A stretch of DNA of 51,090 nucleotides from Verrucomicrobia bacterium Opi.OSU.00C (GTDB lineage Bacteria; Verrucomicrobiota; Verrucomicrobiia; Opitutales; PNEW01), in assembly GCA_002922725.1 (NCBI GenBank), contig PNEW01000004.1, positions 1 to 51,090 on the forward strand. Reading direction: 5' to 3'. The translations under genes and the position numbers were made by a program. Positions within the stretch are counted from its first letter, which is position 1, and every line of letters begins with the position of its first letter. This document shows positions 178 through 14,775 of the stretch, one piece after another. Under the pieces are notes generated by a model, which was not told the origin of the DNA, ran no database searches, and saw only the letters and a list, made by a program, of their open reading frames with translations.

Positions 178-1191
178 ATGCCTATTCCTGTAAAAATGCC
201 TAAACTCGGTTTGACGATGACTGAAGGAACACTCGTCTCCTGGCTTGTTAATGAAGGAGACAAGATTGAAAAAAAACAGGAAATCGCGGAAATCGAAACC
301 GATAAAATCGTTAATCAGTTGAGTTCACCGGCAGACGGTACGCTCGTGCGTATTACCGCTCAGGAAGGTGATGAAATCGATGTCGCCGAAACAATCGCAT
401 GGATCCTCGCGGAGGGTGAGTCGGAAAGCGATATCTCCACTGAAGGCCCTGATCGCTCAGAAATCTCAGTCGCAACGGCTATATCTTCGGAAGCTCTTCC
501 TGTAGAGGAAAAAGTCACGCAACAAAATGAAGGTAGTTTGGAACCCTGGTCGGATATGCGTAAAGCCATTACGCGTACTGTCACCCATTCAGCAGCTGTC
601 CCCCAGATTACTCTTTTCACCCGCGCATCCGCCTCTAGGATGATGGGACTTCGCGAAGTGGATAGAACTATCGCCTATGATGATGTTATAATTTTCTGTG
701 TATCCCGTACCCTGAAAGAACATCCCTGTCTTAATTCCACCTATGAAGAGGCTGGGTTGCGCATCCATTCTCAAGCTAATGTCGGCCTCGCTATAGCCAT
801 GGAAGAAGGATTGATGATTCCTGTAGTTAAAGGGGCCTGTGGCTTATCACTTCCCGAGATTTGTGAGGAGAGGAAGCATCTCGTCGATCTGGTGCGCTCA
901 CGCAGTGCCCTGACGGATGAACTGGAAGGTGGTACCTTTTCCATTACCAACCTGGGAATGTTTCCCGTCGATCGTTTTACCGCTTTGCTCTACCCCTCTC
1001 AAACAGGTATCCTTTCCGTTGGACGCATTCAGCAACTTGCCGTTTCTGGAGACAATGGTCAGATAGCTCTTGCGCCATTTATTGAATTGGGTTTAACTTT
1101 AGATCACCGCGTAGCCGATGGCGCGGCAGGAGCCGCTTTTTTAAAAGACTTAGTTGATAAAATAGAAAATCTGAGATTGGAGGATGGATAA
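178..1191 (+). CDS. acoC: Dihydrolipoamide acyltransferase (E2) of an acetoin/2-oxoacid dehydrogenase complex
   Basis: N-terminal lipoyl domain (MPKLGLTMTEG...ETDKI) and catalytic domain with GGTFSITNLG and DHRVADG. Overlaps the E1-alpha start. Confidence 0.85.
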   Translation: MPIPVKMPKLGLTMTEGTLVSWLVNEGDKIEKKQEIAEIETDKIVNQLSSPADGTLVRITAQEGDEIDVAETIAWILAEGESESDISTEGPDRSEISVATAISSEALPVEEKVTQQNEGSLEPWSDMRKAITRTVTHSAAVPQITLFTRASASRMMGLREVDRTIAYDDVIIFCVSRTLKEHPCLNSTYEEAGLRIHSQANVGLAIAMEEGLMIPVVKGACGLSLPEICEERKHLVDLVRSRSALTDELEGGTFSITNLGMFPVDRFTALLYPSQTGILSVGRIQQLAVSGDNGQIALAPFIELGLTLDHRVADGAAGAAFLKDLVDKIENLRLEDG

Positions 1192-3543: not shown

Positions 3544-4602
3544 TTACAAACTGTAAGTTTCCGGCCAATTACGTGAAGCGGCACCACGCGTGACATACAA
3601 TTTACCCAGGGTTGGCTCTGCTATGACGACGGCTGTCGTAAGTCCGATGTCACCAACATGTCGTTCGATACTGTCGGGAAAGTCGGTGAAATCACAAAAG
3701 CTGCAGTAAGCTAATTGCGCAGTCAATCGACCGTTGTTAGGTTCCAGATTCTTACGTAACATACTTTCACGCATGAGTGAATTTTCACGGGTAAACTGCC
3801 CGAAATTTTCCGTCTTTGCCAAGCGTTTATTTGAGACAACACAATTCGCATGGGTATATATTCCACGCTTGGGTTTAAGAACACCAATTCCATAGGGCGT
3901 GATTTCAATTCCCGCTATCCCACCCTTCTCATCGGCAACTGTACAGTGAGCACACAATTCAATCCGAAATTGTTTTGTAAATTCTATAACCTCTTCCACA
4001 CACGAACAATGCAGGGCAATCAATCCCCAAGCCGCATAAGGCAGGTCACCATTGGGATTATCAACGTAGAGTGCATTGCGAAAAATTGAACAACGACCTT
4101 GAATAAATCCGTGTCCAAAAAGCCACCCCGGGTAGGTAAGCGTTAATGCCGATGGTGCGTTACTCATTTTCATGCGCAGCACTTGGAATTGAAACTGTCG
4201 AAATGCATCGGTGTCTTTAGATTGACCCGAAATCGGGATGCCGTCGAGTGATGCAGTAGGTTGTATCGCAAAAGAAGTGCACGCGTTATCTTCTACGTGA
4301 CCGATTGTTCCTATCTGATTTTCATTTAAGCCCGACCCTTTTGCCATTCCGAGAAATACATCAGGAATGTGAGGTATATATTTATTTATGAATCGGTTGA
4401 ATTTTTTATTCTTCCACCACGGAATTGAATCGGGAACAATCCGACTCGCCCTAAGCTGCAAAGACTCCTGCCAGGCGTAACCGAGCATGACACCGCATTC
4501 GGATGCCGTCCCCTCGACATCAATCAACGGTACTTTACCTTGTGAGTATTCGCGATGATCTTTGATCTTACCCATATCACTATTTGAAAACATCTTCTCC
4601 AT
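3544..4602 (-). CDS. Peptidase C45 family autoproteolytic Ntn-hydrolase/acyltransferase
   Basis: Autocleavage site NA|CTSF about 108 aa in, followed by GQSKD and HANC motifs typical of the isopenicillin-N acyltransferase-like family. Confidence 0.75.
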   Translation of the reverse strand: MEKMFSNSDMGKIKDHREYSQGKVPLIDVEGTASECGVMLGYAWQESLQLRASRIVPDSIPWWKNKKFNRFINKYIPHIPDVFLGMAKGSGLNENQIGTIGHVEDNACTSFAIQPTASLDGIPISGQSKDTDAFRQFQFQVLRMKMSNAPSALTLTYPGWLFGHGFIQGRCSIFRNALYVDNPNGDLPYAAWGLIALHCSCVEEVIEFTKQFRIELCAHCTVADEKGGIAGIEITPYGIGVLKPKRGIYTHANCVVSNKRLAKTENFGQFTRENSLMRESMLRKNLEPNNGRLTAQLAYCSFCDFTDFPDSIERHVGDIGLTTAVVIAEPTLGKLYVTRGAASRNWPETYSL

Positions 4603-5656
4603 CCGTCAACCAGGATAAATCAAAACTGGTTAAAGTAATTTTCTCGTAAGGGTGAGCCTTTCCACATTCATGAAAACAGGCAATTTCACCCTCAGGTAAA
4701 ACTGCTAGATCGGAATAGGCAGAAGGGCCTTCATGGATCAATTTTGATATCACCCAAGATTCACCCTCGTCATAGCTGAGCCTGATCGTCATCTTTGCCC
4801 GATCCGTTGTGCTGGCTGGATTACTAAAAAGTATCCTATCTCTATCTTGGTGAGTAGCATTGGTATAACGAATTATACTTCCCTGGCAAATCGGCTCAAT
4901 AAGGGTTAAATCCCTTTTCAAAGGACCCCAAGTTAAACCACCATCATTACTGATAGAAACGACACGTGTATTTTTGCTTCGATCGAAATTACGCATATTG
5001 AGCATGATACTACCGTTCGCAAGTTCCACCGCCTGACATTCATTCACTTGATCAAAAGGTGTCCTTCCGCCCAATTTCCAAGATAGGCCATGATCGTCTG
5101 AATAAATCACATGGGAATAGTATTTCAAAGTATCAGCCTCTATATGGTCGCAGGGTATTATAAGACGATCTTTATATTCTCCCTTATGAATTTGGATTCC
5201 TTTACATGGTCCAGTGGCATACCAAGTCCACTCAGGTTTCTTAACAGTCGTGGTTATCTCTTTTGGCATTTCCCAAGTCAATCCATCATCATGGGATGAG
5301 GTTACAAATACTCGACGAGTATCATCGCTTATTTGGGTTATGATCTCATTCTCATAATCAGTTCCAAGGTTCCAGGTCATTAACAACCAAATTACCCCTG
5401 TCTCTTTATCTAAAACTGGACAAGGATTACCACACACATTCGCAGTATCGTTCCATATTACCTGTTGTTTACCCCAGGATTTACCACCATCTTCAGAACG
5501 TCTAACAAGCATATCAATATCCCCAGTATCACCTCTACCTGTCTTACGTCCCTCACAGAACGCCAAAACTGTTCCTTTTTTAGATAAAACCAACGCGGGG
5601 ATTCGATAGGTATGATAACCTTCACTACCACTTATATATAAATCAATCTGTTTCAT
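4580..5656 (-). CDS. Exo-alpha-sialidase (GH33), no signal peptide
   Basis: YRIP motif, five Asp boxes (SEDGGKSW, SHDDGLTW, SDDHGLSW, SNDGGLTW, SYDEGESW), catalytic-type NE, NMR and SAYS motifs. Confidence 0.9.
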   Translation of the reverse strand: MKQIDLYISGSEGYHTYRIPALVLSKKGTVLAFCEGRKTGRGDTGDIDMLVRRSEDGGKSWGKQQVIWNDTANVCGNPCPVLDKETGVIWLLMTWNLGTDYENEIITQISDDTRRVFVTSSHDDGLTWEMPKEITTTVKKPEWTWYATGPCKGIQIHKGEYKDRLIIPCDHIEADTLKYYSHVIYSDDHGLSWKLGGRTPFDQVNECQAVELANGSIMLNMRNFDRSKNTRVVSISNDGGLTWGPLKRDLTLIEPICQGSIIRYTNATHQDRDRILFSNPASTTDRAKMTIRLSYDEGESWVISKLIHEGPSAYSDLAVLPEGEIACFHECGKAHPYEKITLTSFDLSWLTDGEDVFK

Positions 5657-5840
5657 TGTTTTGTATCTTTTTAATACGTTATTTTAAATAACCAAAGTAA
5701 AATAAATATTAAGGTAAAATATAATTAATTATAGAAGGTAGATATATCGGTAGCTTAAAGAAAAACCGTAATAACAATAAAGCCAGTAATCCGACCGTAC
5801 TATTCAACTAACAAGAATATATATACTGTGGATAAAGTAA

Positions 5841-6482
5841 TTACGTTGGAAGAAGTGAAACGAGGTCGGTATGGGGTCGAGCAATTACGTGCGATGCAAT
5901 AATTGTACCTAATTCATTAACTGCTTCTTTACCTGCGTCAACTGCCGCTGTGACTGCAGCAACGTCACCTTTAATTACCACGGTGACATAAGCAGCTCCT
6001 ATTTTCTCTTTTCCAACAAGTGTTACATTTGCAGATTTTAACATTGCATCTGTCGCTTCTAAAGCTGCGACAAGTCCTTGCGTTTCCAAGAATCCTAAGG
6101 CATGTTGGTTATTTTTCATATTTTGTTTCTGTGTTATTTTATAATCGCTTGGTAAAAATTGTTCACGTGCTCCATAAATAGGATTAATCGTATTAGGATA
6201 ATCAACCGCCTTATCAAACCCACTTGCCGGTGAAGGAATAACACTGCTAATTACTTCTACACCCAATTCATTGCCAAAATCAACTGCAGTCTGCAGTGAA
6301 GAGTTGACATCTGACACATCACCGGCAACACGTATTAATATATTTTCAAGAGCTGTAGTATCTAGCCCCAGTAGCTTAACTCCAGACTCTTTCACCATCT
6401 TATCTGCCACCACTGCGCCAATACTCCAAAAAGAAACCTCGGCAAAGCCCAAGGCAATTACCTCTTCATATGATTTTACCAT
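5841..6482 (-). CDS. Bacterial microcompartment shell protein with two BMC domains (divergent N-terminal, canonical PduA/EutM-like C-terminal)
   Basis: C-terminal [44 protein letters not shown]-terminal [22 protein letters not shown]. Confidence 0.92.
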
Positions 6483-6504: not shown

Positions 6505-7557
6505 TTATATTTTACCAAGATTGCGTAATACTTCATCTACAATTTTATCCACATCAATAACATTACGAGAAGACCCCTGTTTATCAGCTAGTGTTGTCCC
6601 TACAAAAGGCTGAACGAGGTCAGCCCTAGATTTTTGACAATTACTCGCCGCCTCCTCAAATCCACATTCCGTAAGAAGGCAAGCAACTTTTGAACGTATA
6701 TTACCCAATTCTTCTTTTTCACGTGATGAAAGCACATATCTGGAACTACCCATATTGAAACCTCTTAACTCGTATCCTATGCGAAACCCATGGGGAAAAT
6801 CGGGAGCATAAAGCATGGTATTGATGAGATCTAAAAGTTTAAACTGAATTCGTTTTGCTTCATCAAGTTCACCTGAAAGAAAACAATTGTATAGCTTCAT
6901 TACAGCTTCCGGAACAACTCCAGAAGTTGCTATTGTCCCACCATCTCCTCCCATAACAAGTGTTGGATATAGAATTTCCTCACAACCCACGAGAATACTA
7001 AATTCAGGTCGTTGGGGTTTAATTTCATTCAAGGTATTAATAAAACGAGGCATATCACGACTACTATCTTTAATTCCGATAATATTGGGGCAATCCAAAG
7101 CTAAGCGCCTAACCACTGGGACACTTATTTCATTAGAAAACTGAGGGATATTATACATGACGATCCCAATCGGAGATTTAGCAGCAATTTCCCTAAAAAG
7201 TTCCTCAATACTTTCTTGGCTAACATTGTAATAATAAGGACCAGTAACAGAAACAGCCGAACAACCATAATCCGCGTAGGTTTCACAGGCTTCCAGAATC
7301 ATTTCCACATTTGCTTCTGCACCACCTGCGAGAATAGGGACTCGTCCCTTTACCTCACTACTCATTATTGCGATTATTCTCTTACGTTCTTCAAAGCTGA
7401 GGCGAATAAATTCTCCTGAACTCCCATTGGGATAAAGCCCAGAGACTCCTTTATCAATAAGCCAATTAGTCTGTCTACGTAGTTCATTCTCATTTATTTT
7501 CCCTTCTTCGTCAAAAGGAACAATATTAGGAACAAATATACCTTCAATTTTACTCAC
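6505..7557 (-). CDS. DapA/NanA-family class I aldolase/lyase with C-terminal encapsulation-peptide-like extension
   Basis: GSSGE, PYY, YNIP and Schiff-base IGIKDS motifs. Lacks the DapA-specific Arg (YNIPQF vs YNVPSR). The tail ends in IDVDKIVDEVLRNLG. GTG start. Confidence 0.85.
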   Translation of the reverse strand: MSKIEGIFVPNIVPFDEEGKINENELRRQTNWLIDKGVSGLYPNGSSGEFIRLSFEERKRIIAIMSSEVKGRVPILAGGAEANVEMILEACETYADYGCSAVSVTGPYYYNVSQESIEELFREIAAKSPIGIVMYNIPQFSNEISVPVVRRLALDCPNIIGIKDSSRDMPRFINTLNEIKPQRPEFSILVGCEEILYPTLVMGGDGGTIATSGVVPEAVMKLYNCFLSGELDEAKRIQFKLLDLINTMLYAPDFPHGFRIGYELRGFNMGSSRYVLSSREKEELGNIRSKVACLLTECGFEEAASNCQKSRADLVQPFVGTTLADKQGSSRNVIDVDKIVDEVLRNLGKI

Positions 7558-9355: not shown

Positions 9356-10566
9356 TTATAAGTTAAATATATTGGCTACTTTACTAAATATTCCTGATTT
9401 CTTTAAACCCTGATCCTCTTTATTCTGGGCTGTTAGACCATAGTAAAGTAGCCCCAAAACAGTGCTGTATTCTGGTTTACGTAAATCGTTCCTCACCCAG
9501 GAAGGGTTATCACCCACCCGGGTAGACACCCCTAATCGCAGTGATGCTGCATCGGCGATTTTTGGTAAACGTGACACCCCTCCCGTCAAAATCACACCAG
9601 CTGCTAATTCTTCAGGGTTTAGGAATTCGACAAGCTCTTTTTTAACGATTCCAAAGAGCTCATCTATTCTTGCTTTAAGTATTTGATAAATTGCTAAACG
9701 AGATATTGCGCGATCACCAATTGTCAAGTCACCGAAGAGCCAAACTTTATCATCTTTATCTTCATTATCAATAATCGCTTTACCAAATTCTAATTTGAGT
9801 TTCTCTGCCTGTTGTTTATTTACACGCAATCCCAAACTTAAGTCGTTTGTCAGGTGATCACCCCCAACACTTATTACTCCCGTCCGCACAATATGTCCGT
9901 TGTTGTAAAGCAAATAGTCCGTAGTGCTACAACCAATATCTAAGACAAGTACACCATTTTGTTTTTCCTCTTCACTCGTAACCATGCAGCCTGAAGCAAT
10001 ACTTGAAATTATCATATCCTCAACTTTTAAACCAAACCCATTAATTACATGGATATGATCACTAACCTTTCTTTCATCTCCTTCTATATGCCAATAAGTA
10101 ACATTTAATTCGTCACCTTCCATCTGATGTGGGTCTTTAATCGATCTTCCATCTAATTGAAAACCACACTGTACATGATGTATATAAACGCGTCTGGGAG
10201 GTAGCTCCTTACGCTTGGCATTTTCTATTACACTTTGGACATCACTCTGGCGAACAAGATTATCAGGCGAACTAACCATGACAGATCCTTTATTCGAAAA
10301 ACCTTGGAGGTGTCTTCCAGTTTGAGCAAGAAATACTCCTTCAATTATAGCCCCTGCATTTTTTTCCGCTGCGATGATCGCAGCATGAGTACAATCACTC
10401 GCAGCACGAAAATCAATTATTTCACCTTTTCTTACACCCATCGCTGTAGACTGCCCCATCCCAATGATATTGAGACTTCTTCCTTCATCGATAATTTCAC
10501 CAACCATTACGACGACTTTCGCCCCCCCCCTATTTCAACTGCACCAATGATTCTATTCTCGTTCAT
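9356..10566 (-). CDS. ftsA: Cell division protein FtsA; 5' end interrupted by a frameshift in a G9 run (intact ORF 9356..10507)
   Basis: GVRKG, VLDIG, GGDHLTNDL, AEKLK, LTGG. The upstream frame from ATG 10566 reads MNENRIIGAVEIG and shifts at 10522-10530 into AKVVVMVGE. Confidence 0.9.
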
Positions 10567-10595
10567 AATTGGGTTGTAAGTTTATTTATTTATAT

Positions 10596-11534
10596 TCAAT
10601 TTCTAAACTTTCTCGGGCCAATATCCCGATATAATTGTACTGCAACTTCGTCTTTTACCGAGAGATCAATACGTTTAATATTATAGATATCGTTGCTTTT
10701 GGAGTATTTTATAACGCGAGCTAATTGAGCTAATTGCCGATCAAAATCAAATGGAGCAAATATTATTTCACGCACAATACTACTTCGTACTTTAATAAAT
10801 TCATCAGACAAGCCATTAAGTTCATCGAATTCTTTACAAGAAACTACCTCCCATGACTTAAATATGTTCGGATAATTCAATTTTGCTAAATCCAATAGTT
10901 GTGAAATTATTTCTATCCCAGAAAGAGAAAAGATGTGATCGCCATTCTGTTTGAATCGAACTCCATCTAAATAAGGTAAATGTTTGTTTTTTGTTATTTT
11001 ATAGCTCTCGTGAAAATATACTGTCCCATCCCTAGCGATGTAAACTTCCTCTATTTTCTTTTTATTCCTTCGGACTCTAGCACGTAATACAGGCTCTCTT
11101 TCTATAACCTCAATATGCAATTCATCTGGAAACTTTCGTGAGACCACTGCAGAATTTATCTGTCCTTTCTTTTCCAACATTTGTTTGATCGCAAAAATAT
11201 CTACCTCCATAATTGTAGCATCCTGTGGCCATGCGATATTTTGTTCGAACCAATGGTGATCTAACTCTCCATTACTTTGAAAGTTAATACGGCGCACAGG
11301 AGCAGAGGTACCAGCAAGAATTATCTGGTTATCATTTGAGCGGAAAAAGTGAACACTATAAGCAATACCTCCAGCCATAAATAAAATTATAATAATGACA
11401 CCACACATTTTAGCACGCCCAAAAATTTTACGTTTGCGAGCTATTGTGCTGACCGCTTGTCGACCAGCTGTTTGCTTAATTCCACGCCAATTTCTAGTCT
11501 CTATACAACTTGATTTAATTTTTGCCATGATCAA
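10596..11534 (-). CDS. ftsQ: Cell division protein FtsQ/DivIB
   Basis: Basic N-terminus, single TM helix, POTRA-like V.RKFPDELHIEVIEREP, C-terminal IDLS. Lies between ddl and ftsA. Confidence 0.85.
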   Translation of the reverse strand: MIMAKIKSSCIETRNWRGIKQTAGRQAVSTIARKRKIFGRAKMCGVIIIILFMAGGIAYSVHFFRSNDNQIILAGTSAPVRRINFQSNGELDHHWFEQNIAWPQDATIMEVDIFAIKQMLEKKGQINSAVVSRKFPDELHIEVIEREPVLRARVRRNKKKIEEVYIARDGTVYFHESYKITKNKHLPYLDGVRFKQNGDHIFSLSGIEIISQLLDLAKLNYPNIFKSWEVVSCKEFDELNGLSDEFIKVRSSIVREIIFAPFDFDRQLAQLARVIKYSKSNDIYNIKRIDLSVKDEVAVQLYRDIGPRKFRN

Positions 11535-12457
11535 TTGCTTCGCAAAGCGTAAAACCTATTTATTGCAGGTAAAACTAGACTTTGGGCCAATTGAGGAAAA
11601 TCATATCCCAGACAACAGGCACTTTTACGTAAGAGGCTTGTAGAAGTAAGACCAGGAAGAGTATTTATTTCTAGAAAATAGCTTCCCTCACTATTCGAAG
11701 TCATAAAATCAACACGGATAAAATCACGGCAACCGCAAATGTCAAAGACAGATTCAGCGACTTCACGAATTTCTTTCTCCAATGAATATCCAAGTCTAGC
11801 AGGGTAATGATATTCTGTCATTCCTTCTGTATACTTGTGTCTGTAATCATAAATACCATTTTTGGGGATTATTTCTACCAAACCCATTCCTTTTCCCTCA
11901 AGTACCCCAATTGAAATTTCTCTTCCTTGAATCCTCTGTTCAAAAAGCCAATTTCCTGAAATAAGTTTGGCCATTTTTTTATTGAGAGCTTCCTCATTTT
12001 CAGCAATGAATACATCTATACTACTCCCCTCACACAAAGGTTTAACTACGATATTACTACCAAGTTTAGCTACTACTTCGTTCACAGTTGGTAAATTAGG
12101 GGCTGTCGCTAATAAATCTTTGGCAACACGTATGCCAGAATCTGCTACAAGCGTTTTTGTTTCTTTTTTATTAATACACAAACGACTCGATTCAGAATCA
12201 CAGCCAACATAAGAAAATTTCTCCTTTTCTAACAATTTTTGTATCTCCCCATCTTCACCAAAAGTTCCATGCAAAGTTAAAAAAATAATCTGATTGTCAG
12301 GATCAAGATTTTTTGGAAGAGCCATTTCATTTAATTCAATGAGATCAACAGAATAATTCTTTTTTAATGCAGCTGTAACTGCCTGACCGGATTCTAATGA
12401 GACATTACGTTCTTTTGAAATACCTCCAGCCAAAACAGCGATAGAAAGATTACTCAT
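11531..12457 (-). CDS. ddl: D-alanine--D-alanine ligase
   Basis: GGISKERNVSLESG, LHGTFGEDG, EGSS, YDYRHKY, RVDF, LEINTLPG. Confidence 0.95.
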   Translation of the reverse strand: MSNLSIAVLAGGISKERNVSLESGQAVTAALKKNYSVDLIELNEMALPKNLDPDNQIIFLTLHGTFGEDGEIQKLLEKEKFSYVGCDSESSRLCINKKETKTLVADSGIRVAKDLLATAPNLPTVNEVVAKLGSNIVVKPLCEGSSIDVFIAENEEALNKKMAKLISGNWLFEQRIQGREISIGVLEGKGMGLVEIIPKNGIYDYRHKYTEGMTEYHYPARLGYSLEKEIREVAESVFDICGCRDFIRVDFMTSNSEGSYFLEINTLPGLTSTSLLRKSACCLGYDFPQLAQSLVLPAINRFYALRSN

Positions 12458-14775
12458 AGTACTTCATTCCAATTTTTGCCCATAAGAAGGACTTCAGGTT
12501 CGAGATCAAATCCTCGATTAGCCTTTACCTCTCTTCGTATGTCTTTTATTAATGAAATAATATCTTTACTCGTTGCTCCACCACGGTTAATAATAAAATT
12601 ACCGTGAAGCTTTGATATTTGAGCTGCCCCAATCTTCCTCCCCTTGAGGCCTAATTCATCAATAATCTGCCCTGCATAAGACCCCTCAGGATTTTTAAAG
12701 ATACACCCAGCGCTTGGTTCACGAGGTTGGCTACTTTTTCGGATACTTGAAAACGACTTAATTTTATTTTTAATAGTTATTTCTTCCGCACTTGAAGTTG
12801 CATGTAAAGTCGCCCCTATCGCAACTGTATTTTTAAGCTCTTCGCATGCCCGATAGCTAATATGAACATCTTTGCGTTTTATATTTTTTAATTCTCCTTC
12901 CCATGTAACTAATTGAATTTCATCTACGATATCAAATATCCATCCACCCATCGCACCAGCATTCATTCGAAGTGATCCTCCTAAAGTCCCTGGTATCCCT
13001 TCGAGGAATTCAAATCCCGTTAGACCTAATTTTATACCTTCAACACAAATTTTATTCAATCGCACTCCTGCTCCTACCCAAATCCGACCATCACCTAATG
13101 GTCGGATTTGTTTCCAGTAATTATGGTTAAGGCGAACGACTAAACCTTGAAACCCCTCATCAGGAACAATTAGATTAGAACCTCTACCAATAAAATATAC
13201 TTGAATTTTATTTTTATTTGATTCGTTTAAAAGAACTCGTAAATCTTTCTCAGACGCCGGTTCTGCATAATAGCGTGTGTTCCCCCCAACTTTTAAGGTC
13301 GTTTTATTAGCAAGTGATTCAAAATCAGCTATTTTTGTTTGCTTATCCATTTTATGTGATAAATCGATCCACCATTTTCCATCTTTACTCATTCTCTGTT
13401 TACAATTAATCACTTTTGGGGACTTATTTTTTATTATCGCGACAACCGCTTTGGCCCATTCATTTATGTCGCCTGCTCCTACAAAAAGCAAAACCGAAGG
13501 ACCTTTTAATTTACGTTCAAGGTTGTTGCTCAATTCTTCTATCGAATTAACTATTCTACCTCGTGAAACATTTGGGAGAAGTGTGAGCAAATCAATACTT
13601 GTCCCACCTTCACAAGGACTCTCATTAGCCTCGTAGACATTAAGAAGATAAATTACATTCGCTTTTTTCAAGACTTCAGCAAATTCCTTTTTATAGTAAA
13701 GTGTTCGTGAATAGCGATGAGGCTGGAAAACAATAATTATTTGATTGTCTGGGTAGTCCTCACGAATGAACTTTAATAGAGATCCTATCTCTTCAGGGTG
13801 ATGCGCATAATCTTCAAAAATAGTTAATTGAGAACTACTATAAAGGATAGTCTGTCGACGTCTTATACCTGGAAAGAGTTCAAGTGATTGCTTATTAAGA
13901 TGTGTCGTCAAGTAGTGCGTTACGGCTAATGCTCCCAAGGCGTTGATCGCATTAAAATAACCGGGCACAGGTACCGACACTTCACATTTAGAGAAACGAC
14001 CACTTAATTGTAATGATAAATTTTTACGACTCTGTCGTACAATTTTACCAGCATAATCTCCATCTTTACCGAAACTTAACCGTTCAGCCGTAATATTTCT
14101 CTGAGATATTTGTCCTAAATATTTGTAGTCGGTCGGTAAAAACACAGATTTTTCAGTCCGCTGAAAAAGCCGTCCAAAAGTATTTTCTAATTCATCTAGA
14201 TTGCGATATTGATCAGGATGATCCCAATCTAGATTTGTCGTTAGCGTTATTTCAGGTGAAAATTCATTTATTGTTCCATCACTTTCATCGATTTCAGCAA
14301 TAATCCATTCACTTCCACCATCAAACTTGGCAGGCAAGTAGTAATTGCCATTAAATAATGCTCCTAAAATATAACTAAATTTAAATCCCTCTTTTTCCAA
14401 AGCAGCTATAAGCATACCTGAAGTTGTCGTTTTACCGTGGCTACCCACTATTGCGATAAGTTTTTTATCAGCCACCGTATTAGCCAACATAACCCCTCGC
14501 TTCAATATAGGCAGTCCACGTTCAATTGCTACACGATAACAAGGGTGGGCTTCATTAATCGCACTTGAATAAATAACTGTATCAATGTCTTTCGAAATTT
14601 CAGGCTCTGACTCTATACTAATATCATTGTTCATTAGCAGATTTGAAATCGGGTTACTAATATTATCATCGTAACCACTAATTTTATGACCACCACTCTG
14701 CAAATAAAGAGCTAAGGGAGCCATCCCCATACCGCCAATTCCTATCATATAAATATTTTTACTTTGCTCGTTCAT
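12454..14775 (-). CDS. murC: Bifunctional UDP-N-acetylmuramate--L-alanine ligase / UDP-N-acetylenolpyruvoylglucosamine reductase (MurC-MurB fusion)
   Basis: MurC motifs IGIGGMGM, GSHGKTTT, EIDESD, DYAHHP. MurB motifs TTLKVGG, GRGSN, GIPGTLGG..MNAGA, GCIFKNP, HGNF, LEPEV. Confidence 0.93.
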   Translation of the reverse strand: MNEQSKNIYMIGIGGMGMAPLALYLQSGGHKISGYDDNISNPISNLLMNNDISIESEPEISKDIDTVIYSSAINEAHPCYRVAIERGLPILKRGVMLANTVADKKLIAIVGSHGKTTTSGMLIAALEKEGFKFSYILGALFNGNYYLPAKFDGGSEWIIAEIDESDGTINEFSPEITLTTNLDWDHPDQYRNLDELENTFGRLFQRTEKSVFLPTDYKYLGQISQRNITAERLSFGKDGDYAGKIVRQSRKNLSLQLSGRFSKCEVSVPVPGYFNAINALGALAVTHYLTTHLNKQSLELFPGIRRRQTILYSSSQLTIFEDYAHHPEEIGSLLKFIREDYPDNQIIIVFQPHRYSRTLYYKKEFAEVLKKANVIYLLNVYEANESPCEGGTSIDLLTLLPNVSRGRIVNSIEELSNNLERKLKGPSVLLFVGAGDINEWAKAVVAIIKNKSPKVINCKQRMSKDGKWWIDLSHKMDKQTKIADFESLANKTTLKVGGNTRYYAEPASEKDLRVLLNESNKNKIQVYFIGRGSNLIVPDEGFQGLVVRLNHNYWKQIRPLGDGRIWVGAGVRLNKICVEGIKLGLTGFEFLEGIPGTLGGSLRMNAGAMGGWIFDIVDEIQLVTWEGELKNIKRKDVHISYRACEELKNTVAIGATLHATSSAEEITIKNKIKSFSSIRKSSQPREPSAGCIFKNPEGSYAGQIIDELGLKGRKIGAAQISKLHGNFIINRGGATSKDIISLIKDIRREVKANRGFDLEPEVLLMGKNWNEVL

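Follow-up and report, generated by a model that had tools for sequence, protein, structure and literature searches.

We describe an aldolase gene and its partner in the 51,090-nucleotide stretch at positions 1 to 51,090 of contig PNEW01000004.1 from Verrucomicrobia bacterium Opi.OSU.00C (GenBank assembly GCA_002922725.1); "the window" denotes this whole stretch. The gene (6505..7557, minus strand) encodes a 350-residue class I aldolase of the DHDPS/NAL family with a putative C-terminal targeting extension, and the next gene downstream encodes a shell protein of a bacterial microcompartment (BMC). We propose that this Schiff-base pyruvate aldolase has probably been recruited as cargo of a PVM-type BMC through an encapsulation peptide (EP), and that it cleaves a 2-keto-3-deoxy sugar acid inside the organelle, likely yielding lactaldehyde. 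A preliminary description of the window, made from the letters alone, had suggested an EP-like tail on a DapA-family enzyme. That suggestion is supported by the helix, the linker, the composition, the conservation among homologues and the linkage to the shell gene.

Fold and family of the aldolase

The open reading frame (ORF) begins with a GTG start codon, and the assignment of the gene relies on the ORF, the Pfam match and the alignment. The catalytic TIM barrel comprises residues 1–285 (6703..7557, minus strand). The Pfam DHDPS model (PF00701, 289 positions) matches residues 4–285 with an E value of 1.3e-55 and a score of 188.6 bits, compared with a curated cut-off of 22.1. In a 30-sequence alignment, K163 (within GIKDSS), Y135 and GS(S/T)GE at residues 45–49 are invariant. 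We take K163 to be the Schiff-base lysine and Y135 to be the catalytic tyrosine of the DHDPS/NAL family. An AlphaFold2 model built on this alignment (mean predicted local distance difference test, pLDDT, 85.9) predicts the TIM barrel confidently. When the model is submitted to Foldseek, the best match is E. coli YagE (PDB 2v8z; TM 0.88 over about 295 columns), and the family structures give TM values of 0.84–0.91. YagE is also the closest solved relative by sequence (E 1e-40). The enzyme is a class I aldolase of the DHDPS/NAL superfamily.

The preliminary description had pointed out that the protein, at 350 residues, is longer than the family norm. In accordance, about 65 C-terminal residues lie beyond the end of the PF00701 match; solved relatives span 289–343 residues. 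The motifs that it listed, GSSGE (residues 45–49), YNIPQF (residues 135–140) and GCEE (residues 191–194), are all present. However, GSSGE is not the family consensus, which is GSTGE in the 30-sequence alignment.

The enzyme is not DapA, and it is not NanA either. The DapA model TIGR00674 gives it 143.5 bits, below the equivalog cut-off of 206.15, and the true dapA of the genome (357.3 bits) is located on another contig, C163, which bears out the earlier argument against a role in lysine biosynthesis. Against the NanA models TIGR00683 and NF003164 it scores 123.6 and 144.1 bits, below the equivalog cut-offs of 382 and 281, respectively. A KdgD-type or L-KDA-dehydratase-type identity was considered as well. 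The KdgD models give 95–97 bits, compared with about 144 bits for aldolase-type models. Because of these lower scores, and because the best structural match is an aldolase, the dehydratase identity is set aside.

The C-terminal extension

The extension is composed of three parts. The first part, residues 286–307 (6637..6702, minus strand), is helical and contains three cysteines (C293, C298, and C307). The alignment columns of this region are invariant or nearly so, and AlphaFold2 places extra helices at residues 278–297 and 301–306. In two tail-less orthologues from genomes without a BMC match (L090 and L067), this helical segment is absent or cysteine-free. The conserved cysteines before the linker may form a site for metal binding or redox chemistry linked to packaging.

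The second part, residues 308–331 (6565..6636, minus strand), is a disordered linker. No column of the 30-sequence alignment is conserved within it, and the pLDDT of residues 311–331 is below 50. Family linkers are 7–36 residues long, with 40% G/A/S, 28% KRDEQN and 14% proline. Marine metagenome contigs carry strain variants (A>C, C>T) at 6573/6574, inside the linker-coding part, and the assembly of one metagenome run fragments into short contigs precisely at 6573–6574.

The third part, residues 332–350 (6508–6564, minus strand), is the EP-like tail. These final 19 residues are NVIDVDKIVDEVLRNLGKI, followed by the stop codon at 6505–6507. An amphipathic helix is predicted at residues 336–349 (encoded at 6511–6552), with a pLDDT of about 70–75 in the AlphaFold2 model. 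The 15-residue window 336–350 has a hydrophobic moment of 0.79, the highest of the 336 windows in the protein (mean 0.27, standard deviation 0.14), and shuffling the 19-residue tail 5000 times at constant composition gives a value this high in only 0.06% of cases. The linker and amphipathic C-terminal helix of the preliminary description are thereby confirmed, the AlphaFold2 model placing the terminal helix after a low-confidence stretch.

EPs are described as amphipathic helices of 15–20 residues, attached through a poorly conserved linker to BMC-associated homologues of an enzyme (Kinney 2012 and Aussignargues 2015, via PMC4594438). The tail has such a helix, at the top of the hydrophobic-moment ranking, and is preceded by a disordered, variable linker rich in small and hydrophilic residues. 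Its composition is also that of an EP: about one third aliphatic, about 40–45% charged or polar, and almost devoid of aromatic residues and proline. In 108 homologous tails the values are 32.8% I/L/V, 43.6% KRDEQN, 1.0% aromatic and 1.2% proline; published EPs of aldolases and aldehyde dehydrogenases (AldDH) have 34–36%, 38–46%, 0.6–0.7% and 0–0.1%, respectively (PMC4594438, Table 2). These properties support the prediction, made at the level of sequence, that the C-terminal tail is an EP.

Conservation and loss of the tail

The 120 best homologues are 321–374 residues long and 63–100% identical to the aldolase. Their C-termini share a conserved helix, (L/V)D(A/V)(D/E)xIVREV(M/L)xxL, after a P/A/S-rich stretch that varies in both length and sequence. 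The tail is kept in 119 of them, 108 with the strict pattern and 11 with a variant start of the helix, judged by eye. The sole exception (P0075) lies on a 1,120-bp contig and ends within the linker.

We also scanned for related loci with two patterns from the catalytic domain, taking one genome per species. Of the 231 relatives found, we retained the best 80. Since the patterns were drawn from the catalytic domain only, these 80 loci are not selected for the tail. The tail is present in 73 of the 80, a shorter variant is present in four (L041, L063, L068, and L071), and three have none (L061, L067, and L069). The variant tails have AMLARINKRVP-like ends after a short linker, and two of the four loci retain the adjacent shell gene; these tails may be shortened EPs. 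Past the stop codons of the three tail-less genes, no frameshifted tail is hidden in any of the three frames.

In a maximum-likelihood tree of the first 300 residues (tail excluded), the orthologues form a clade of 89 rows with a support of 99. Eighty-one rows carry the EP-like tail, four carry the short variant, and four are tail-less. All four tail-less rows are nested among tail-bearing rows, indicating that the tail is ancestral to the clade and has been lost at least four times.

The adjacent shell gene

The gene directly downstream of the aldolase, which the preliminary description had passed over, encodes a tandem-domain shell protein (BMC-T) of 213 residues (5841..6482, minus strand), in which PF00936 matches twice. 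Its start codon lies 22 nt past the aldolase stop codon. Among the related loci, 76 extend 700 bp or more past the aldolase; a BMC ORF directly follows it in 44 of them, and 43 of these 44 have two domains. The gap between the two genes is −19 to +42 nt in 38 of 39 cases with readable starts and 113 nt in the remaining one; a 4-nt overlap is seen in 13 of the 39. No adjacent shell gene is present in the tail-less loci L061, L067, and L069 (0/3).

A terminator-like hairpin (5781..5796, minus strand) is located about 45 nt past the BMC-T stop codon. It is a weak call from a consensus scan alone and possibly marks the end of a two-gene transcript. Promoter-like sites are as frequent as expected from shuffles, and we make no promoter claim. 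A 151-nt contig from one marine metatranscriptome run maps to 6952–7102, which is too little to indicate expression and may reflect DNA carry-over. A complex prediction for the BMC-T trimer with aldolase residues 300–350 gave a score of 0.00; controls were not run, and the result weighs neither way.

Past the BMC-T gene, 185 bp away on the same strand, lies a BNR sialidase-like gene, followed by a C45 hydrolase gene. This raises the alternative that the enzyme is an N-acetylneuraminate lyase acting with the sialidase-like protein, with an incidental tail. The same sialidase-like neighbour occurs in L010 and L011, and we assume that the GS(S/T)GE motif is NAL-like, which would count in its favor. 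However, the scores are far below both NanA cut-offs, the sialidase neighbour is found in just two of the 80 related loci, and the terminator-like hairpin lies between the two units. N-acetylmannosamine, moreover, would be no small volatile aldehyde calling for encapsulation. We consider a lyase of this kind very unlikely.

The probable host organelle and its association with the tail

The genome assembly (2.05 Mb in 287 contigs, 82.6% complete) contains a main BMC locus on contig C18, with genes for PTAC, three BMC-H, AckA, three BMC-P, AldDH, a class II aldolase and an Ldh/Mdh-type dehydrogenase. This gene set is the composition published for PVM loci (PMC4207490), indicating that the aldolase and BMC-T pair is a satellite of a PVM-type BMC. 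In four of the 80 related loci, the main BMC locus adjoins the aldolase, which has PTAC no more than 4 kb away. Two irregularities are seen in the C18 locus. The Ldh/Mdh-type dehydrogenase is split into two overlapping ORFs of 83 and 262 residues (L009 15330–16260), owing to a frameshift or an assembly error, and the third BMC-P (EutN/CcmL) match (C18:21929–22120) has an in-frame TAG and spans 56 of 83 profile positions.

We then compared the occurrence of the aldolase with that of BMC domains in a sample of 401 genomes of the phylum, defining orthologues by E <1e-100 and at least 56% identity. BMC domains are found in 84 of the 401 genomes, a baseline of 21%. Orthologues are found in nine, including the genome of the window, and eight of the nine are BMC-positive. 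In the remaining genome (G249), which is 99% complete, there is no match to a BMC domain, and the 315-residue orthologue lacks the cysteine-bearing helix, the linker and the tail. Five further genomes with tail-bearing orthologues and no adjacent BMC-T are all BMC-positive. Altogether, every genome tested with a tail-bearing orthologue has BMC shell genes (13/13), as do both variant-tail genomes tested (L068 and L071). The L067 genome, whose orthologue is tail-less, has no BMC match. The L061, L067, and L069 genomes have one orthologue copy apiece.

The association of the tail with BMCs is in the direction that an EP predicts, and it is not absolute. The expectation that the tail is confined to BMC-containing genomes holds for the 13 tail-bearing genomes and for two of the four tail-less ones, in which no shell gene was found. 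It does not extend to the other two tail-less genomes, which are BMC-positive, and the counts are small and come from related genomes.

The helix might instead be unrelated to BMCs and help a cytosolic aldolase to oligomerize, to associate with membranes or to be regulated. In favor of this are the frequent occurrence of amphipathic helices at protein termini, the two tail-less orthologues from BMC-positive genomes, and the 32 of the 76 loci, many of them tail-bearing, that have no adjacent shell gene. Against this explanation stand the tight, often overlapping linkage to BMC-T in 44 of the 76 loci, the occurrence of all tested tails in BMC-positive genomes against the 21% baseline, and the loss of the tail in two genomes in which no shell gene was found. 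In addition, the mixed acidic and basic, aromatic-free composition matches known EPs rather than membrane anchors, and none of the other DHDPS paralogues of the genome has an open frame longer than 317 residues. A function apart from BMCs is therefore very unlikely in our judgment.

Several observations weigh against our proposal of an encapsulated aldolase that forms lactaldehyde. The L061 and L069 genomes are BMC-positive although their orthologues are tail-less, indicating that the tail is not obligatory wherever a BMC is present. Only eight of the 83 other BMC-positive genomes of the phylum sample carry the orthologue, indicating that it is a BMC accessory rather than a core part. The genome counts are low, and the genomes, being related, do not count as independent samples. 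The tail has modest similarity to the N-terminal EP of the AldDH of the same genome, equaled by 2.5% of shuffles. As for the substrate, no sugar-acid pathway genes lie beside the aldolase and BMC-T pair in the window, and the dehydratases adjacent to the aldolase in related loci span at least three subfamilies, so that one fixed substrate is not established. The termini of PTAC, the class II aldolase and AckA, also from this genome, resemble the tail no more than shuffles do. EPs are alike in properties and not in sequence; therefore, the comparison of the tail with cargo sequences is not decisive.

Gene neighbourhoods and the probable substrate

Genes within 4 kb of the aldolase were counted in the 80 related loci. 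Enolase-superfamily dehydratases and SDR proteins are found in 19 loci each, aldo-keto reductases in six, lactonase-like amidohydrolase_2 proteins in five, and GlcD/GlcF- or Lut-like oxidase parts in six to seven. One locus (L018) has the order SDR, dehydratase, amidohydrolase_2, aldolase, BMC-T. The nearest structure to the lactonase-like neighbour is PDB 4dlf, which we take to be L-fucono-1,5-lactonase. Rhamnosidase and other deoxy-sugar genes are nearby in some loci. The genome of the window has many sugar-acid pathway genes elsewhere, one of them 73% identical to a neighbour of the aldolase in L041. Adjoining the aldolase and BMC-T genes of L018, from a Limisphaerales metagenome-assembled genome (MAG), are a second tandem BMC protein and a PduS-like flavoprotein (Complex1_51K, Fer4, and RnfC_N domains), divergently oriented (9788–11655).

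PVM BMCs process lactaldehyde (PMC4207490, PMC8857213), and the non-phosphorylating L-fucose route ends in an aldolase that cleaves 2-keto-3-deoxy-L-fuconate to pyruvate and L-lactaldehyde (PMC11199699). Taken together, these reports point to an encapsulated 2-keto-3-deoxy-acid aldolase that most likely yields lactaldehyde. The aldehyde released is probably L-lactaldehyde.

The tail could be an EP on an aldolase of other specificity, acting on a pentonate or hexonate 2-keto-3-deoxy acid to release glycolaldehyde or glyceraldehyde, or acting broadly. Several homologues bear the name 2-dehydro-3-deoxy-D-pentonate aldolase in their source records, and YagE is listed as a 2-keto-3-deoxy-galactonate aldolase. 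One of the neighbouring dehydratase subfamilies is nearest to a putative D-galactonate dehydratase, and the GlcD/GlcF-like oxidase genes, directly upstream in the six to seven loci, would fit glycolate too. On the other side, the literature ties PVM BMCs to fucose, rhamnose and lactaldehyde (PMC4207490, PMC8857213), and rhamnosidase and deoxy-sugar genes accompany some loci. The lactonase-like neighbour, with PDB 4dlf as its nearest structure, presumably also speaks for fucose. We regard a different or broad specificity as unlikely and favor L-lactaldehyde as the product.

Comparison with known systems

The closest known counterpart is the EP of the PVM/GRM5 class II aldolase (PMC4594438). It is C-terminal too, pairs a weakly conserved linker with a helix of about 17 residues after it, and has the same composition; its linkers, of 23–81 residues, compare with 7–36 in the family described here. 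Both enzymes, given the role predicted for ours, generate an aldehyde in the same type of organelle. The fold and chemistry are unrelated: the aldolase of the window is a class I Schiff-base TIM barrel, whereas the PVM/GRM5 enzyme is a metal-dependent class II aldolase. The predicted substrate of the former is a non-phosphorylated 2-keto-3-deoxy acid that would yield pyruvate, whereas the latter yields dihydroxyacetone phosphate. The former lies in a satellite with a BMC-T, and the latter lies in the main locus. 

E. coli YagE (PDB 2v8z, 3n2x), a 2-keto-3-deoxy-sugar-acid aldolase of the DHDPS/NAL family, has the same catalytic scaffold at about 27% identity, but lacks the cysteine-bearing helix, the linker, the EP and a link to BMCs. 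FucH, the 2-keto-3-deoxy-L-fuconate aldolase of the L-fucose route (PMC11199699), performs the reaction predicted here. Its gene lies in a cluster with those for a dehydrogenase, a lactonase and a dehydratase, an arrangement seen in some of our related loci. Published descriptions place FucH in a cytosolic pathway, whereas the aldolase of the window is predicted to be encapsulated.

Sutter et al. 2021 (PMC8217296) describe 'EUT module' satellites, EutABC with an EutL-type BMC-T, which likewise join an extra signature enzyme to its own BMC-T and are proposed to let the main organelle take on a second substrate. They differ from our pair in enzyme, substrate and BMC types (HO, SPU). The same work places a pfam00701 class I aldolase near MUF2 loci, that is, a DHDPS-family aldolase near a metabolosome whose AldDH is closest to that of PVM. 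The MUF2 loci are of another locus type and come from other phyla (Gemmatimonadetes and others), and the passage on them mentions no EP on the aldolase. A satellite BMC-T clade of PVM genomes, 'Ts_mud' / 'T_pvm', labelled PVM (sat), comprises tandem-domain proteins of 202–233 residues, which our BMC-T resembles by description; the text on this clade is silent on the neighbouring gene. In the passages on locus types, the pfam00701 aldolase is mentioned near MUF2 loci only, and the text on PVM names only BMC-H and BMC-P.

Other features of the window and the host

Upstream of the aldolase lie purS and a dcw cell-division cluster, in which a single ORF of 773 residues (12454–14775, minus strand) fuses Mur ligase (MurC-like) and MurB domains. 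The sialidase-like protein downstream of BMC-T (3544–5656, minus strand) starts at its catalytic domain with no obvious leader, and the C45 acyltransferase/hydrolase gene overlaps its end. The sialidase-like and C45 pair follows BMC-T in the closest relatives, L010 and L011; the remaining 78 loci lack this arrangement.

L010 and L011 are labelled Opitutales MAGs. The stretch is found in seawater and marine plankton metagenomes from several studies, and the host is a marine planktonic member of the Opitutales. Eight contigs with the gene pair, which is of Verrucomicrobia type (L023, L029, L038, L039, L043, L044, L045, and L073), bear MAG records that name Bifidobacteriaceae, Bacteroidota, Ignavibacteriae or Dongiaceae, which probably reflects mis-binning or mislabelling and not gene transfer.

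Discussion

The mechanism set out here goes beyond the tail itself: we infer actual encapsulation, the docking partner, the substrate and any role of the BMC-T as a pore. The last 45 or so residues of the aldolase, the disordered linker and an amphipathic helix of 14–19 residues, would act as the EP. During assembly, the enzyme would dock through this helix onto shell proteins, onto other cargo with EPs, or onto both. The aldolase would be co-transcribed with its own BMC-T tile as a two-gene satellite module. A cytosolic oxidative (non-phosphorylative) sugar pathway would supply a 2-keto-3-deoxy sugar acid, which the enzyme would cleave inside the organelle to pyruvate and a reactive aldehyde. 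The likeliest substrates, 2-keto-3-deoxy-L-fuconate or 2-keto-3-deoxy-L-rhamnonate, would give L-lactaldehyde, and the aldehyde would be consumed by the encapsulated CoA-acylating AldDH and PTAC and by the acetate kinase encoded in the main locus.

A broader scheme, which we offer tentatively and hold as doubtful, treats the aldolase and BMC-T as a portable module that provides a second, non-phosphorylative entry to the PVM organelle. Cytosolic oxidative pathways of several sugars, in line with the three or more dehydratase subfamilies found next to the aldolase, would converge on 2-keto-3-deoxy acids; the BMC-T tile might admit these anionic acids, and the EP-tagged aldolase might cleave them inside. 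One organelle could in this way detoxify the aldehydes of many sugars, and the conserved cysteines might add a redox or metal switch for packaging.

Our evidence supports a targeting device of known type, carried by a new enzyme family and paired with its own shell tile, the EP role being predicted from the protein sequence. According to the 2015 review of EPs, no other encapsulated proteins were known to contain them (PMC4594438, passages on EP-bearing cargo). We found no literature linking a DHDPS-family enzyme to a BMC EP or to PVM, in a search outside which lay the locus diagrams of Sutter et al. 2021, where the pair may be shown. If the prediction holds, a new enzyme family would join the short list of EP carriers, and the aldolase tail and BMC-T would offer a compact natural pair of tag and tile for engineering.

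To our knowledge, the class II aldolase of the phosphorylative route is the only signature enzyme described for PVM BMCs. The aldolase and its BMC-T suggest a second, undescribed route for sugar breakdown products into the same organelle. PVM BMCs are considered key to the use of fucose- and rhamnose-rich polysaccharides, such as fucoidan, by marine and soil Verrucomicrobia and Planctomycetes (PMC8857213, PMC8217296). If our proposal is correct, oxidative sugar-acid routes would drain into the organelle too, and pathway reconstructions from metagenomes would change. The finding also bears on a question raised in PMC8857213, namely what advantage the BMC route has over a cytosolic one.

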